DNA of 64,000 bases from an uncultured bacterium (GCA_964487845.1 CAZASK010000009.1:5-64004), one strand, 5' to 3'. Shown: positions 14,910-37,593, counted from the first letter of the stretch. Translations and numbers: made by a program. Notes: generated from the letters alone by a model not told the origin.

Positions 14910-14967
14910 CTTTTGATGTTTTTTATATATGTGCTATAGTTATGTAAAAGTTGAATATAGAGTATAT

Positions 14968-17900
14968 ATGCAGCCGATAAAAAATTTGCAGCAACTTACT
15001 CTGGATACGCTTGTTGAGCAGGTGTCTGAAGGAAAGTTTTCTCCTAAAGGTATTAGTGGTCCCATAGCCAATAAAATTGTGGAAGCTGCTTTTAAAAAAT
15101 TAAAAGAAAACGAGGCGCTTTCTGAAGAGAGATGGAGGGGGATATCGTGCACTGAACTGAACACCAACGCTTTATCTTCTACAAACATAAAAATTTTATG
15201 TAAATTATGGGGGATGGAATTAAAAAAACTGGGTATTTCAAGCGGAGATTTTAAGGATTTTATTTTTACGTCTGATCCATTTCCAAAATTGGAGTCGTTG
15301 CATATATGCAACCCAAGAGATTTAACAAAAGAGAGTTTGCTAAAATTATGCGAAAAAATACCAGAAACATTGCAAGAATTTGTTGTTACTGAGTGTGAGC
15401 ATCTCGACGATGAGGTTATAGCCATTCTTTCAAAAAAATGTCCTCATTTAAAGATATTAAACGTGAGCGGGTATAACAAGGTTACGAAAGTTGGATCACA
15501 TTTCAAAGAACTTCAAGAACTAGATGTGTCTCGTACACAATTTACGGAAAAATCAATAGAAGAACTTGGAGGGTATCAACTCGATTCTATTAATTTATCT
15601 TACACTTCGATTGAAGATAAAGGGATTGAACTCCTCTCACAAAAATGTCCTGAATTAAAGATATTACATCTGTGCGGTTGTAAAAAGGTTACGAAGGTTG
15701 GATCAAATTTCAAAAAACTGCAGGGACTTGATGTATCTTATACAAAGTTTACGGATACATCAATAGACGAGCTAAAGGAGAATCAACTTAATTCTATTAA
15801 CATATCTCATACTCAGGTTGACAACACAGGTGTTAAATCGCTAGCGAATAGTAAAAATGGAAATACTCTTGAAGCATGTGTGATGAATGGCTGTTCTTCG
15901 ATCAGTGAATTGCCGGAGAGTTTTTCAAAAATGAAGTTCTTGGGTATTGCAGGTACAAAGATCACAGCACTACCTCGTAATATGTGCTCAGCAACAACTA
16001 TTGATGGCGTTCCGATGCTGCAGCAGGCGATGATGGATAAAAACGAATCGCTTTTTTCTTTTTTACTAGAAAGTTTGAATGAGAAAGAACTGATTGCTCA
16101 GGATAGGAGTGGAAATACAGCTCTTCATTATGCTTGTAAGCAGAAACAAAAAACAAATGTACAAGCACTAATTGAAAAAATGGATCAGTCAACATTAGGC
16201 ATTCAGGATCACGATGGGAAATCGGCTCTCAACCTCGCTATCGAATATAGGCTGACGGACATTGCCGTACAGCTTATTCATAAAATGAATCCTGACGATT
16301 TGAGCCATCAAGATAAAGAATTAGGACGACCTCTGTGGCTTGCAGTCATGTTTGACATGGACGATGTTGCAGCTGCTTTGATTGAAAAGATGCATTCTAA
16401 AAACTTGCAGCTTCAAGGCAAGAATGGACTGACACCTCTACATTTAGCTTGCCTGAAGGGCCGAAGTAATGTTGCAAAAGCCTTGATTGAAAAAATGAAT
16501 GCATCGGCGCTAAGCATACAGGATAAAGAGAAGGAATTGGCACTGCATTATGCTATTGGAAAGGACATGGACCATGTTGCAGTAGAGCTTATTAAAAAAA
16601 TGAATCCCCAAGATTTGAAGCATCGAAACAATGATGGTGATACAGCTCTCCACCTCGCATGTAAACGTAAGAACCCAGAAATTGTAAGTGCTTTGATTAA
16701 AAAAATGGATCAGTCAACATTAGCTATTCAGGATCACGATGGGAGTACAGCTCTAGAATTGGCGATTGACTTTGGACTAGATGATATTGCGGGCGATCTT
16801 ATTAAAAATATGAATTCTGAAGGTTTGAAGAAGCAAGACAAGTATGGTCGTACAGTCCTTCATACAGCTTGTCTGTATAACAGAGTAGAAGTTGCTCAAG
16901 CTTTGATTAAAAAAATGGATCAGTCAACATTATGTATCCAGAATAAAGATGGACAAACAGCTCTGCACAACGCGATTGAAAATAAGGCTAGCGACGTTGC
17001 AATAGCCCTTATTGAAAAAATGAACTCTAAAGATTTAAAACTGCAAGATTGCAATATGGATACAGCGCTGCACAAGGCGGTTTGGAAGAATAAAAACGAC
17101 GTTGCAATAGCCCTTATCGAAAAAATGAACTCTAAAGATTTAAAGTTGCAAGATAATAGAGGGGACACATGCTTGCATATGGCGTGTGCGTATACGCGAG
17201 TAGAAGTAGCGAAATTGCTGATCGAAAAAATGGATGAATCGGCACTTGGTATTCAAAATAAGGAAGGACGGCTAGCGCTGTACTGGGCGATTGAAAATAA
17301 GCATAGCGACATTGCAAAAGCTCTTATCCAAAAAATGAATCCTAAAGATTTAAAACTCCAAGGTAAGAAAAAACGAACGCCTCTTCATCATGCTGCTGAT
17401 AAAGAATTTGACGACATTGCTATGGAGTTGATTCAAAAGATGGGGTTTGAGGGTTTAAAGATTCAAGATTATCAAGGTTGTACGCCTCTTCATTTAGCTT
17501 GCCTGAAGGGCCGAAGTAATGTTGCAAAAGCCTTGATTGAAAAAATGGATGAATCGGCGCTAAGCATACAGGATAAAAAGAAGGAATTGGCACTGCATTT
17601 TGCTGTTGGCAATGACATGGATGATGTTGCAGTAGAGCTTATTCAAAAAATGAATCCAGACGATTTGAAGCATCAAAACGATGATGGTGATACAGCTCTT
17701 CATGAAGCTTGCCGAAGAAGTCGTGTAGAAGTCGCGAAATTACTGATCGAAAAAATGGATGAATCGACACTTGGTATTCAAGGGCGGGGAAAAAAGACAG
17801 CCTTGCATCTTGCTATTGAAAAGAAGTTGGGCGATGTTGCGGTAGCACTTATTGAAAAGATGCGCATTGAAGACTTGAGCCTACAAGATAGTAAGAAGTC

Positions 17901-17985
17901 AAATGCTCTATGTTACGCTTTGGAATACAAATTACAAGATGTTCTCGATGTTCTGATACCGAAAGTCGAATCTGAAGATAAATAA
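14968..17985 (+). CDS. large LRR plus ankyrin-repeat protein (eukaryote-like, effector candidate)
   Basis: N-terminal third carries FBXL/AMN1-type cysteine-containing LRRs (CPxLKILxxxGCxKVT repeated). The remainder is about 20 ankyrin repeats (G.TALH.A......VA.ALIEKM). Near-identical internal DNA duplications are present. Confidence 0.85.
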   Translation: MQPIKNLQQLTLDTLVEQVSEGKFSPKGISGPIANKIVEAAFKKLKENEALSEERWRGISCTELNTNALSSTNIKILCKLWGMELKKLGISSGDFKDFIFTSDPFPKLESLHICNPRDLTKESLLKLCEKIPETLQEFVVTECEHLDDEVIAILSKKCPHLKILNVSGYNKVTKVGSHFKELQELDVSRTQFTEKSIEELGGYQLDSINLSYTSIEDKGIELLSQKCPELKILHLCGCKKVTKVGSNFKKLQGLDVSYTKFTDTSIDELKENQLNSINISHTQVDNTGVKSLANSKNGNTLEACVMNGCSSISELPESFSKMKFLGIAGTKITALPRNMCSATTIDGVPMLQQAMMDKNESLFSFLLESLNEKELIAQDRSGNTALHYACKQKQKTNVQALIEKMDQSTLGIQDHDGKSALNLAIEYRLTDIAVQLIHKMNPDDLSHQDKELGRPLWLAVMFDMDDVAAALIEKMHSKNLQLQGKNGLTPLHLACLKGRSNVAKALIEKMNASALSIQDKEKELALHYAIGKDMDHVAVELIKKMNPQDLKHRNNDGDTALHLACKRKNPEIVSALIKKMDQSTLAIQDHDGSTALELAIDFGLDDIAGDLIKNMNSEGLKKQDKYGRTVLHTACLYNRVEVAQALIKKMDQSTLCIQNKDGQTALHNAIENKASDVAIALIEKMNSKDLKLQDCNMDTALHKAVWKNKNDVAIALIEKMNSKDLKLQDNRGDTCLHMACAYTRVEVAKLLIEKMDESALGIQNKEGRLALYWAIENKHSDIAKALIQKMNPKDLKLQGKKKRTPLHHAADKEFDDIAMELIQKMGFEGLKIQDYQGCTPLHLACLKGRSNVAKALIEKMDESALSIQDKKKELALHFAVGNDMDDVAVELIQKMNPDDLKHQNDDGDTALHEACRRSRVEVAKLLIEKMDESTLGIQGRGKKTALHLAIEKKLGDVAVALIEKMRIEDLSLQDSKKSNALCYALEYKLQDVLDVLIPKVESEDK

Positions 17986-19587: not shown

Positions 19588-19686
19588 TGTCGGGGACCTT
19601 GTGGAATGAACCGGTCTGAACCAGGTCAGGATCGGAAGATAGCAGCCTTAAGGATATTCAGGGCATGCCATAAGTCATCTCCGACA
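19588..19686 (+). ncRNA. ffs: signal recognition particle RNA (small bacterial 4.5S type)
   Basis: CCAGGTCAGGATCGGAAGATAGCAGCC matches the conserved helix-8 core CCAGGUCAGGUCCGGAAGGAAGCAGCC with its GGAA tetraloop. Terminal helix TGTCGGGGA/TCTCCGACA. T5 follows. Confidence 0.8.
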
Positions 19687-19698
19687 TTTTTCTTAAAT

Positions 19699-19861
19699 AG
19701 ACTTCTTTCGAAACTCGCTTTGGTTGGAAAAATTGATGATTTTTGTGCAGGTTTAGTTGCAAATTTTGAGAGCAATATGTAAGCATATGGTCGAAAAATT
19801 TGCAGCTAAAAATGCCAAAAATGGTAATTTTAACAACCAAATGGAGTTTCGAAAGAAGTCT
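19699..19861 (+). mobile_element. MITE-like element, copy 1 (163 bp)
   Basis: 18-bp perfect terminal inverted repeats AGACTTCTTTCGAAACTC / GAGTTTCGAAAGAAGTCT. About 92-94% identical to 26167..26329 and, inverted, to 49180..49341. AAT flanks both ends. Confidence 0.8.
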
Positions 19862-19880
19862 AATGCTCTATAATACATAG

Positions 19881-24261: not shown

Positions 24262-25384
24262 TAATAATGCCACAACAGAGCTCGATCACGAGGTAATTCA
24301 AGCCGTTGTCCAGAATTTGGCGCTCTATGGAAATCCTTCTAGTGCTCATTATCATGGCCAACAAGCAAAAAATGTTTTAGTGAAAGCTCGCTCCCAGGTG
24401 GCCTCTTTTTTCAAAGTAAAACCAAAAGAGGTAATTTTCACCTCGTCAGGAACAGAAGCGAACAATCTTATCATACGAGGATTTTTTGGTAGCCAGCCTT
24501 CAGGTCATATTATTACATCAGATGTAGAACACTCCTCGGTTTACAATACTCTGCAAGCAATGGAAGCTATGGGTTGTACGGTCAATTATTTGCCGGCAGG
24601 GCGCCATGGTGCTGTTTCTGTGGACCAAGTGCAAGCGGCAGTGCGACCCGATACGCGTTTGATTTGTCTTCTTGGAGCCAATAATGAAACAGGTGTAAAA
24701 AGTGAGATCGATGCTATTGCAGCTTTTGCCCTTGATCGTCAGATACCTTACATGGTAGATGGTGTGTGCATGGTTGGAAAGAGTGCATTTTCCTTACCGA
24801 GAGGGGTTTCCTTTTTTAGCGTAAGTGGTCATAAATTTCATGCACCTAAGGGGATTGGTTGCGCTATTGTTCGAGAAAAATATAAACTTCAACCCTATAT
24901 GACCGGAGGTCCTCAAGAGTGGGGGCTACGAGCTGGAACGGAAAATGTTGCCGCTATTGCTGGATTTGCAACTTCACTGCAGCTTCTTGAACGAGAAATG
25001 ACATCAATGTTATCGGAAGTAAAGCGACTTCGAGATTATTTTGAGAGTGAGTTGTTCCGCTATCTTCCCGATATACAGATCAATGGATCGGGTGATCGTC
25101 TTGTAAATACATCAAATGTTCTCTTTCGAGGCATAGACGGGGAATCATTGTTAATTCGCTTAGATTTGCAAGGGCTATCTGTAAGCCATGGTTCAGCATG
25201 TGCGTCGGGAGCTCTTGAGCCTTCACGTGTGCTTCGTAATATGGGCTTGACATACGAAGAGGCGGCAGCTTCCATTCGTTTTTCGCTCTCGCGCATGAAT
25301 ACGCAAGCAGAAATTGATCAAGCAGTTGCCATCATCGTAAAAAGCGTTGAAGAGCAAAGACGCATGAGTGGAAAAAGCCTCTAA
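24239..25384 (+). CDS. cysteine desulfurase (NifS/IscS class V aminotransferase)
   Basis: YLDNNATT, TSSGTEANN, PLP-lysine context SVSGHKFHAPKG, and active-site loop SHGSACASG. Confidence 0.85.
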   Translation: MQKRVYLDNNATTELDHEVIQAVVQNLALYGNPSSAHYHGQQAKNVLVKARSQVASFFKVKPKEVIFTSSGTEANNLIIRGFFGSQPSGHIITSDVEHSSVYNTLQAMEAMGCTVNYLPAGRHGAVSVDQVQAAVRPDTRLICLLGANNETGVKSEIDAIAAFALDRQIPYMVDGVCMVGKSAFSLPRGVSFFSVSGHKFHAPKGIGCAIVREKYKLQPYMTGGPQEWGLRAGTENVAAIAGFATSLQLLEREMTSMLSEVKRLRDYFESELFRYLPDIQINGSGDRLVNTSNVLFRGIDGESLLIRLDLQGLSVSHGSACASGALEPSRVLRNMGLTYEEAAASIRFSLSRMNTQAEIDQAVAIIVKSVEEQRRMSGKSL

Positions 25385-26085
25385 GTCATTTTATTTTGTA
25401 TGGAGATTTCTTCTATTTTTCTGCGTTCTTTGTATGCTTTTTCAATAGCATTCGTGACCTCATCAGGGTCATCGCAGATAGTAAAGAGCTCCATATCTTG
25501 TTTTGAGATGCAGTCATTGTGAAGTACGGTGTCTTTCAACCAGTGCATGAGTCCCTTCCAAAAAGATGATCCCATGAGAAATACAGGCACGGGCTGTGTC
25601 TTTCGGGTTTGAATGAGGGTAAATATCTCAAAGAGCTCGTCTAAAGTTCCAAAGCCTCCTGGAAGAAAAATAAAGCCTTGAGCATATCGAGCAAACATTA
25701 CCTTTCGAATGAAAAAATAACGAAACTTAAGACGCAATTTTGGATCAATATAAGCATTTGGCTCAGATTCAAATGGAAGGTCAATGATCAGTCCACAAGA
25801 ATTACCTTTGCCTTTTTGTGCTCCCATGTTGGCGGCTTCCATGATTCCAGGGCCTGCACCAGTAACAATAGAAAAGCCTTTTTTGACAAGCTTTTCAGAT
25901 AGTTGAATAGCAAGTTCATAGTAAGGAGACGTAGCAGTAAGCCGAGATGATCCGAAAATGGAGATGCAAGGTCCAATTGTTGAAAGCGTCTCAAATCCAT
26001 CTACAAATTCTGAAATGAAGCGGAATAATTTCCACGCATCACCACTTGGTACTGCCACATCATGAGAATGAATAAAATCGTTCAT
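25381..26085 (-). CDS. LOG-family / TIGR00730 Rossmann protein (cytokinin riboside 5'-monophosphate phosphoribohydrolase-like)
   Basis: GAGPGIMEAAN and LPGGFGTLDELFE motifs. Confidence 0.85.
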   Translation of the reverse strand: MNDFIHSHDVAVPSGDAWKLFRFISEFVDGFETLSTIGPCISIFGSSRLTATSPYYELAIQLSEKLVKKGFSIVTGAGPGIMEAANMGAQKGKGNSCGLIIDLPFESEPNAYIDPKLRLKFRYFFIRKVMFARYAQGFIFLPGGFGTLDELFEIFTLIQTRKTQPVPVFLMGSSFWKGLMHWLKDTVLHNDCISKQDMELFTICDDPDEVTNAIEKAYKERRKIEEISIQNKMT

Positions 26086-26166
26086 AACTCTCTGTTCCTT
26101 GGTGTATAAGATATCTCATTTTTACCTTACCTCATTTTCAAAAATTGTTACAAAAGACTTCTTCTA

Positions 26167-26329
26167 AAACTTCTTTCGAAACTCGCTTTGGTTGGAAAAA
26201 TTGATGATTTTTGAGCAGGTTTAGTTGCAAATTTTGAGAGCAATATGTGAGCATATGGTCGAAAAGTTTGCGGCTAAAGATTCCAAAAATGGTAATTTTA
26301 ACAGCCAAATGGAGTTTCGAAAGAAGTCT
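26167..26329 (+). mobile_element. MITE-like element, copy 2 (163 bp)
   Basis: Same orientation as copy 1, with about 9 substitutions by eye. The left terminus reads AAACTTC instead of AGACTTC. It ends 32 nt before the ubiA start. Confidence 0.8.
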
Positions 26330-26360: not shown

Positions 26361-27206
26361 ATGAGAGCAAATATAAAAAAATGGCAAGATGTGCTGATGT
26401 TGCCACACACCTTGTTTGGTCTTCCCTGGGTAATTATTGGCGCGCTCCTGCCATTTGTATTACGCATTCCTGCGACCGTCCAGGGGGTACAATGGTTCTC
26501 TATAGCCCTTGCATTTTTTTCAGCACGGTTTGCTGGGATGGCATTGAATCGTTATATTGACAGTACGATCGATCAAAAAAATCCACGGACAAGGCAGCGA
26601 GCATTGCCTCGAGGTGATGTGACTCATGCAGAGGTTTTTGCGGTTATCCTCGTCTCCTTAGCGTTGTTTTTTTTCGCATGCTGGCATATTAATACGTATA
26701 CACTCTATTTAGCACCTCTTGTGTGTACTTTATTGATCCTCTATTCATACACGAAACGTATTACCTCTTTGTGTCATTTTGTGTTAGGGCTGATCCATTT
26801 TTTTGGTCTTGTGGTAGCTTTTGCAGCAGTAGCTGGAGTTATGACTATGGCTCCCATTATCATAGCAACGGCCCTGTTGGCAATCATTGCATCAGGAGAT
26901 ATTTTCTATGCGCTTCAAGATGTTGATTTTGACAGAAGCTATGGGCTCTATAGTATTCCAGTGAAATTAGGTGTTGCAAAAGCAACCTTACTTGCAAGAC
27001 AGCTACAAGTAGCGGCTATCTTGCTTCTTCTTTATTTTGGGGTACATACAGGTTTATCGATGATCTATTTTAGCGGATGTATGATTGCGGCAAGCATGTA
27101 TGCGGTGAGTTATTTTCAAAATAGATTGGTTTTCTTCATGAATAGTTATGTTGGAATTGTTATGATGCTCGCTTTGATAGGAGAGTACGTGTGGCAAAGA
27201 TTGTAG
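26361..27206 (+). CDS. UbiA-family aromatic prenyltransferase (quinone biosynthesis)
   Basis: NRYIDSTIDQKNPRTRQRALPRG and a second Asp-rich motif YALQDVDFD, in a polytopic membrane protein. The track start at 26247 lies inside the MITE, so ATG 26361 is used. Confidence 0.8.
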   Translation: MRANIKKWQDVLMLPHTLFGLPWVIIGALLPFVLRIPATVQGVQWFSIALAFFSARFAGMALNRYIDSTIDQKNPRTRQRALPRGDVTHAEVFAVILVSLALFFFACWHINTYTLYLAPLVCTLLILYSYTKRITSLCHFVLGLIHFFGLVVAFAAVAGVMTMAPIIIATALLAIIASGDIFYALQDVDFDRSYGLYSIPVKLGVAKATLLARQLQVAAILLLLYFGVHTGLSMIYFSGCMIAASMYAVSYFQNRLVFFMNSYVGIVMMLALIGEYVWQRL

Positions 27207-37545: not shown

Positions 37546-37593
37546 TTTTAACGCGGGTCTCCTATTAACCAAATAAATATTTGAGAAATTTTT
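37546..37593. repeat. 48-nt repeat, an inverted copy of 1..48
   Basis: 47/48 identical to the reverse complement of 1..48. Lies 46 nt after the stop of the 36589..37500 gene. Confidence 0.8.

Follow-up and report, generated by a model that had tools for sequence, protein, structure and literature searches.

The nearest precedent for the repeat described here, to judge from the accessible part of its report, is a pair of elements in Orientia tsutsugamushi, where ISOt1, an IS5-family element close to IS1381, is accompanied by a cognate MITE, mISOt1 (PMC2575882). Like the chlamydial element, mISOt1 carries the TIRs of an IS5-family (ISL2 group) IS and has been amplified in an obligate intracellular bacterium. 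The host phylum is different, and a full-length palindrome or covariation is not reported in the accessible part of that source, with which the comparison is by description only (PMC2575882). The same clade includes ISCaa3 of Amoebophilus asiaticus, an IS5-family, ISL2-group element of 914 bp with two ORFs, a -1 frameshift and a 275-aa product, which has relatives in Orientia, Legionella, Regiella and Parachlamydia; the clade is common to amoeba-associated intracellular bacteria, and exchange among them has already been proposed (PMC3196728). The putative partner IS of our repeat resembles ISCaa3 and ISCaa2 in size (~905-915 bp), in its two ORFs and -1 frameshift, in its 275-aa transposase (65% identical) and in its related TIR. 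Neither direct repeats nor a MITE were reported for ISCaa3 (PMC3196728), whereas the chlamydial IS and MITEs show a clear 3-bp ANT duplication.

Correia/NEMIS (Neisseria), ERIC (enterobacteria), RUP (pneumococcus) and MITECca01 are likewise 100-250 bp long, with TIRs, hairpin potential and a mostly intergenic location, but they have other TIRs and partners, the chlamydial target being ANT and the partner an ISL2-group IS. Correia and RUP duplicate TA. MITECca01, the "widespread MITE" of Cardinium, has been tied by its TIRs to the parental IS982-family ISCca4 and, being IS982-derived, is unrelated to the chlamydial element (PMC9769881).

The window, the whole 64,000-nt stretch of DNA that was analysed, contains a repeat that is very probably a ~163-bp MITE mobilised in trans by the transposase of an ISL2-group IS. 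It is shorter than 300 bp and lacks a transposase, it has TIRs, a fixed 3-bp TSD and dispersed copies, and a cognate IS shares both the TIR and the TSD. Among named sequences, the closest homologues of the window proteins come from Chlamydiia and Parachlamydiaceae MAGs; no close relative was returned when the window was compared by blastn with all collected loci. All three copies described in a first-pass annotation were recovered (19699-19861, 26167-26329 and, inverted, 49180-49341) and can be aligned end to end, while a relaxed terminus search detected exactly four such elements in the window, the fourth of which (54859-55024) the annotation had missed:

19699-19861, plus strand: putative MITE copy 1, 163 nt, family A, perfect 18-nt TIRs
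26155-26329, plus strand: putative MITE copy 2, core 26167-26329 beginning AAAC, plus a duplicated partial terminus
49180-49341, minus strand: putative MITE copy 3, 162 nt, inverted, flanks ATT/GTT
54859-55024, no strand assigned: fourth, related hairpin MITE (putative), 166 nt, variant TIR, TSD AAT

A hand count on the alignment of the three copies gave 8, 8 and 11 pairwise differences per 163 positions, or 93-95% identity, close to the ~92-94% estimated earlier. The repeat search scored copy 1 at 96% against copy 2 and at 88-89%, ungapped, against the inverted copy 3. Similarity among the three ends exactly at the TIR ends. The terminal 15-mer AGACTTCTTTCGAAA is present six times in the window, at both ends of all three copies, compared to 0.27 occurrences expected, and this count was reached in 0 of 100 shuffles. 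The TIR, AGACTTCTTTCGAAACT[C], is perfect over 17-18 nt in all three copies; in copy 1 the perfect 18 nt seen in the first pass lie inside 37-nt arms with 89% complementarity. The window copies are 162-175 nt long and, as stated in the first-pass annotation, hold no transposase gene and are crossed by short mechanical ORFs only. No transposase with these ends and no IS copy was detected within the 64-kb window.

A clean TSD was present in the window for copy 1 and the fourth element only. For copy 1, AAT at 19696-19698 and 19862-19864 had been guessed to be a target duplication; the guess was correct, and the duplication takes the general form ANT across elements. The fourth element, flanked by AAT at 54856-54858 and 55025-55027, has the TIR AGACCTCTTGCGTAATTA(AGG) and an interior unrelated to that of the three copies, and is also predicted to fold into a stable structure (-88 kcal/mol, z = -16). 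The flanks of copy 3 are ATT/GTT and those of copy 2 are CTA/AAA or AAA/AAA, depending on where the end is placed. Copy 2 has undergone a rearrangement at its left end: 12 nt upstream of the core start there is another, partial terminus, AGACTTCTTC (26155-26164), and deleting the 12 nt CTAAAACTTCTT (26164-26175) gives back the canonical end with flanks AAA/AAA.

The target site became clear from copies elsewhere. For family A, the flanking triplets are identical in 32 of 43 copies, compared to 13.7 expected from the marginal frequencies, and the central base of the triplet covaries between the two sides. Among the matches listed, 113 of the 171 TIR-bounded elements with both flanks have an identical triplet (AAT 56, ATT 45, ACT 7, AGT 4 and AAA 1), preceded by Y and followed by R. 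The target is therefore a palindrome, Y-ANT-R, with a 3-bp duplication. A filled site, TTTCAATC-ACT-[163 nt]-ACT-TTAAAAATTC (L042), could be compared with an empty one in a related sequence of the same MAG, TTTCAATCGCTTTAAAAATTC (L021), which aligns ungapped, as expected for precise insertion. The comparison is paralogous, and this is the single clean empty site among the collected loci; the other candidates are mostly trivial tandem dimers, and one (L116/L165) carries an extra 33-nt indel.

The family is dispersed across genomes of one bacterial group. When one genome per prokaryotic species was scanned with a 26-nt end-plus-subterminal pattern, 58 contig stretches from 13 assemblies were found, 12 of these assemblies being titled Chlamydiota or mislabelled relatives. 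The carriers include a Simkania-like MAG, several "Chlamydiae bacterium" MAGs, Parachlamydiaceae MAGs and Chlamydiales 38-26, together with two "Verrucomicrobia" MAGs and one "C. trachomatis" that we read as mislabelled; the sole match outside Chlamydiota titles is an "uncultured bacterium" (L032). No Orientia contig matched this pattern in the genome collection. An nhmmer profile search gave 43 full-length copies (158-164 nt) and 30 partial ones, mostly at contig ends, and a metagenome scan with the 19-nt TIR gave at least 120 loci. With the metagenome loci added (nhmmer and TIR pairing), family A comprises, among the matches listed, about 50 distinct copies, all at different sites. The first-pass annotation had weighed an insertion against an ancestral conserved leader, and the presence of related copies at non-orthologous sites in many genomes indicates mobility. 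No match to the 163-mer was found by blastn in the plasmid collection.

Family A copies are mostly intergenic, in 16 co-directional, 8 convergent and 7 divergent gene arrangements. Many abut stop codons, partly because the target T-AAT-R contains TAA and partly because the junction T/AG creates TAG. No bias in the orientation of the copies relative to genes was seen, with 14 sense and 16 antisense downstream of 3´ ends and 10 and 12, respectively, upstream of 5´ ends.

The autonomous element with the same TIRs, for which the first-pass annotation had suggested a search, was found among the metagenome loci as an ISL2-group IS. Three pairs of TIRs 903-911 bp apart, in L113 (903 bp), L108 (905 bp) and L105 (911 bp) among the loci listed, have AGACTTCTTTCGAAACT at both ends, the TIR common to IS and MITE being AGACYTCTTTCGAAACT. 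The flanks are AAT/AAT for L113 and L108 and AAT/ATT for L105, and a 579-bp internal-deletion derivative of the IS (L090) is flanked by ATT/ATT. Over its size range of 903-915 bp the partner IS has 17-18-nt TIRs and 3-bp ANT repeats, and its two overlapping ORFs are fused into a 275-aa transposase by a -1 frameshift at an A7-8 run (A8 in the metagenome elements). The transposase matches the Pfam families HTH_Tnp_4 and DDE_Tnp_4/DDE_Tnp_1 as well as NCBIfam NF033581 "IS5 family transposase", for which its two halves score 85 and 134 bits and cover profile positions 2-285. Its relatives are found in a Chlamydiae MAG (83% identity), Neochlamydia sp. AcF84 (76%), Orientia tsutsugamushi (68%) and the "ISCaa3 family" of Amoebophilus (65%), and further in Legionella, Fukatsuia, Wolbachia, Rickettsia and Spiroplasma. 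The copies on the Neochlamydia sp. AcF84 chromosome (L180) and in the Chlamydiae MAG (L181) read ATT-AGACCTCTTTCGAAACT...AGTTTCGAAAGAGGTCT-ATT. The Orientia IS (L182) has ANT triplets at its flanks and the TIR AGACTTCTTTCGAAACT, identical to that of the MITE, and the TIR of ISCaa3 is the related AGAGATCTTCTGAAAC. The nominal ISfinder size for elements of the ISL2 group is ~850-1200 bp, and they have short TIRs and direct repeats of 2-3 bp. By sequence, the partner is assigned to the IS5 family, ISL2 group, ISOt1/ISCaa3 clade.

From the identical ends and the identical duplication, we infer that the ISL2-group transposase would be the mobilising enzyme. The genome from which the window comes presumably has, or formerly had, a copy of the IS, and the MITE family may still be active at present. 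Among the genome-collection loci, no TIR pair 350-4000 bp apart surrounds a transposase, and the ORFs beside solo termini in L005, L013, L022, L035 and L044, considered as IS candidates, are ordinary genes. Similarity between MITE and IS is confined to the first 17-18 nt, with none seen beyond. The interior is not recognisably IS-derived, so simple deletion within the IS does not account for the MITE. The ...ACTC variant, which typifies the right end of the IS, is found at both ends of the MITE; this is a hint, no more, that the MITE may have been born by fold-back of one IS end. Two of the IS contigs look like nests of mobile elements: in L113 a 369-aa ORF (954-2060), which by its sequence alone we take for an IS256/mutator-type transposase, abuts the ISL2-group IS, and in L155 the IS copy (126-1107) is disrupted by foreign DNA.

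We propose the following mechanism. The non-autonomous unit would consist of two 17-18-nt TIRs around a non-coding interior, the whole being an imperfect palindrome. The DDE transposase of the ~905-bp IS would recognise the common TIRs, insert the unit at Y-ANT-R and duplicate the central ANT. Copies would then build up where they are tolerated, in intergenic DNA, often at stop codons, and occasionally in frame in genes, as for copy 3. Effects on neighbours would be side-effects and would include UTR hairpins, the gain of stop or start codons, assembly breaks and false ORF extensions.

Among the matches listed, the same TIR also surrounds several unrelated interiors. A more GC-rich family of 140-144 nt has at least 80 copies and is extremely dense in the metagenome Ga0210402, a 257-262-nt family is an internally duplicated (fused dimer) form of it, and three further small families are 144-145 nt long. 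Every family with this TIR is a full-length imperfect palindrome. The unrelated interiors suggest repeated MITE birth around one IS end and, as the IS clade spans several phyla, these other hairpin families need not be chlamydial.

Two observations concern the behaviour of these families. On the Ga0210402 contigs, the 142-nt family frequently forms tandem dimers with a spacer of exactly 3 nt (L070 4268-4554, L075 6481-6767, L094, L116, L126, L142 (two), L145, L147 and L175). The outer triplets of the dimers match in 12 of 13 cases and the middle triplet is often different, as in ACT / AAT / ACT, which suggests that the ~287-nt dimer moves as a single unit. The variant terminus AGACCTCTTGCGTAATTA occurs in the same chlamydial MAGs (L037 1098, L043 5094, L052 2878 and 5148, L055 3895-4057), where it bounds a family-A-like interior in L055, as it bounds the unrelated interior at 54859-55024 of the window. 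The site at L052 5148 was considered as a possible partner IS for this variant and is not followed by a transposase. At L052 2680-2700, a family-A copy adjoins the end of a variant-TIR element (flank ATTAGACCTCTTGCGTAATA, then AGAC...), which indicates that MITEs land in or beside other MITEs.

The first-pass annotation had placed every copy in the window exactly at a gene boundary. This holds for copies 1 and 2, which are intergenic, and fails for copy 3, which lies in frame eight codons into a binding-protein gene. Copy 1 starts 10 nt past the 3´ end of the SRP RNA (Rfam match 19589-19688; a gap of 12 nt had been given), just beyond its T-run, and lies 19 nt from the stop of a convergent, minus-strand GATase/asparagine-synthase-like gene. 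A divergent LOG-like gene (25381-26085, minus strand) and ubiA are separated by 275 nt, of which copy 2 makes up 175; the ubiA ATG at 26361 is 31 nt away from the copy rather than the 32 nt counted earlier. The intergenic DNA outside this copy amounts to only 69 and 31 nt, and transcripts of ubiA would therefore have to start in the element or read through it. In Logan contigs from SRR11567520, an independent assembly of the genome that the window comes from, the loci are reproduced and contigs end inside copies 1 and 2, which is the usual behaviour of multi-copy repeats in short-read assemblies.

Copy 3 is inserted after codon 8 of a gene for an SBP_bac_3 amino-acid-binding lipoprotein. The ORF (49156-50052), whose start codon, the ATG at 49156, overlaps with the stop codon of argR (49161-49163), encodes MYKKIAYI, then 54 element-encoded codons, then VFIFCFLVCVLCS... 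with the lipobox. Homologues are 57-69% identical and 237-246 aa long, and at their N-termini M-(Y/K)-K-K precedes a run of hydrophobic residues, as in MYKKIVVLIV... and MYKKLLILLS.... The element (162 nt) and the duplicated triplet (3 nt) together add 165 nt, or 55 codons, so that the signal-peptide region has received an in-frame insertion. No stop codon interrupts the ORF within copy 3, and the NCBI record annotates the binding protein at 298 aa (P0132). An ATG inside the copy, at 49255, together with the TIR-encoded KFRKKS, could possibly provide a restart with a new charged N-region.

Open frames are a general property of the element. As the first-pass annotation had warned of spurious ORFs, mechanical ORFs pass through all of the copies. 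There is a mild depletion of stop codons: the three window copies have one open frame in common, and in some subfamilies up to four of the six frames are open (P < 0.002 compared to shuffles). Rickettsia palindromic elements (RPEs), short palindromic repeats of an obligate intracellular bacterium, can lie in frame within protein-coding genes and are not known to have a cognate transposase or a TIR/TSD system. The likeness is one of behaviour only, in that copy 3 adds 55 stop-free codons in a signal peptide and stops are depleted in several subfamilies, whereas most chlamydial copies are intergenic.

Folding of the whole unit predicts a single hairpin on both the plus strand (-83 kcal/mol, z = -15) and the minus strand (-66.8 kcal/mol, z = -13), as the mirror-image halves had led the first-pass annotation to expect. 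Across 48 distinct family-A copies, 92% of the stem cells are paired compared to 34-57% in slid-register controls, compensatory double changes are seen in 32 of 68 pairs, and the covariation score is 0.285, whereas no control exceeds 0.084. Variation is greatest where alignment columns 60-66 pair with columns 112-119, each position there showing four to six pair types. The apical 40 nt and the internal loops close to the TIRs are constant, and the apical 40 nt and phased A/T tracts are kept across subfamilies. Pairing is therefore maintained in the variable stem while the sequence drifts. On the strand of copy 1, G·U cells outnumber A·C cells by 206 to 76. The same excess is present in 15 subfamily consensuses (56 vs 19, at 32 vs 12 distinct positions), always on the same strand.

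Neither the hairpin covariation nor the strand-specific G·U excess is predicted for a purely selfish, decaying repeat, and both count against the MITE interpretation. Together with the apical 40 nt and phased A/T tracts kept across subfamilies, they speak for a rival reading in which the hairpin is kept for the host, as a structured RNA with a function or as a leader or terminator acting in cis, its repeat nature being secondary; it would then be a domesticated element or a small RNA gene family. An explanation for the G·U excess was sought in gene orientation, in promoter/terminator consensus sequences and in Rfam, and none was found. Orientation relative to genes is unbiased, as described above, scans in and around the three window copies detected no promoter or terminator consensus, and nothing in Rfam overlaps the elements at gathering thresholds, the best match being MIR7996 (37 bits compared to a threshold of 119) and all matches being generic long-hairpin plant miRNA precursors. 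Further, the copies occupy non-orthologous sites with TSDs in both orientations, one of them inside a coding region, and the same TIRs surround unrelated hairpin interiors. We therefore consider a host-serving RNA highly unlikely. A long palindrome with G·U strand asymmetry would also suit a single-stranded intermediate, as expected for REP/BIME-like repeats or IS200/IS605-type PATEs moved as single-stranded hairpins by RAYT or TnpA Y1 (HUH). However, genuine TIRs bound the element and its insertion duplicates 3 bp, which does not happen with Y1-transposase elements (IS200/IS605), and a DDE IS that produces this duplication has identical ends. REPs are also much shorter than the 163-bp element, 20-40 bp with GTAG or CGTC heads according to the accessible part of PMC3733652, and this origin appears extremely unlikely. 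Finally, the small number of copies in the window (three, two of them without a clean TSD) could bring to mind remnants of segmental duplications or an assembly artefact. We give such an origin practically no credence: it is refuted by the sharp ends, the dispersal and the TSDs, as similarity stops at the TIR ends, the 163-nt unit is present at other sites in more than 12 other genomes, and the loci recur in the independent Logan assembly, where contigs are broken at the copies.

For the preferred interpretation, a MITE moved by the ISL2-group transposase, the covariation and G·U asymmetry could speculatively be ascribed to selection for transposition competence, given that the ends of a 160-bp element must meet and that cruciform extrusion or the phased A/T tracts could help. 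An RNA role and a mutational asymmetry in master copies are further speculative causes. It is also conceivable, though we think it unlikely, that the hairpin is selected in one single-stranded form (RNA or an ssDNA intermediate), for which the compensatory covariation and the threefold G·U excess over A·C would speak, and that it is, in an RPE-like manner, shaped for tolerance inside genes, for which the depletion of stops and the up to four open frames would speak. If so, copy 3 would be a live example, with KFRKKS as a new charged N-terminus and possibly a new start codon for a lipoprotein signal peptide.

As far as the open-access literature searched shows, this is apparently the first MITE family described for Chlamydiota; no chlamydial MITE was found in open-access texts, which is absence of evidence only. 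The partner IS clade (ISL2 group; ISOt1/ISCaa3) and a MITE of this clade in Orientia were already known. What appears to be new is the 163-nt family, its spread in environmental Chlamydiota, the Y-ANT-R target and the strength of the hairpin covariation. The element breaks short-read chlamydial assemblies and yields false ORFs and N-terminal extensions, and a family model would clean many chlamydial MAG annotations, for example that of the 298-aa binding protein with its 237-246-aa homologues. The family could also serve as a sequence marker for IS exchange between amoeba-associated intracellular bacteria, and the native TIR-transposase pair with its simple ANT target is a possible starting point for chlamydia-like transposon tools.

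The window contains several other repeats and features. Within 53857-54826, a 57-nt direct repeat (53925-53981 and 54770-54826, 88% identity) comes after a tRNA (53857-53928) and brackets two small minus-strand ORFs, one of which (54014-54316) matches PF21716 (addiction-module antidote) and the other (54303-54644) has no Pfam match. The region looks like an 845-bp tRNA-site islet with a toxin-antitoxin pair, and the fourth MITE lies 32 nt past its right repeat. A 48-nt inverted repeat (AAAAATTTCTCAAATATTTATTTGGTTAATAGGAGACTCGCGTTAAAA; 1-48 and 37546-37593, 98% identity), one copy of which runs off the start of the window, could represent a further repeat family or one end of some larger element. 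A 1018-aa ORF (14929-17985) is composed of 105/210-bp tandem repeats in at least eight copies with 60-83% identity, and a minus-strand ORF (46184-47026) with 9-bp periodic repeats at 46686-46856 may be collagen-like. A TPP riboswitch (52378-52488; 68 bits, above the gathering threshold) lies upstream of an ORF at 52546-53787.
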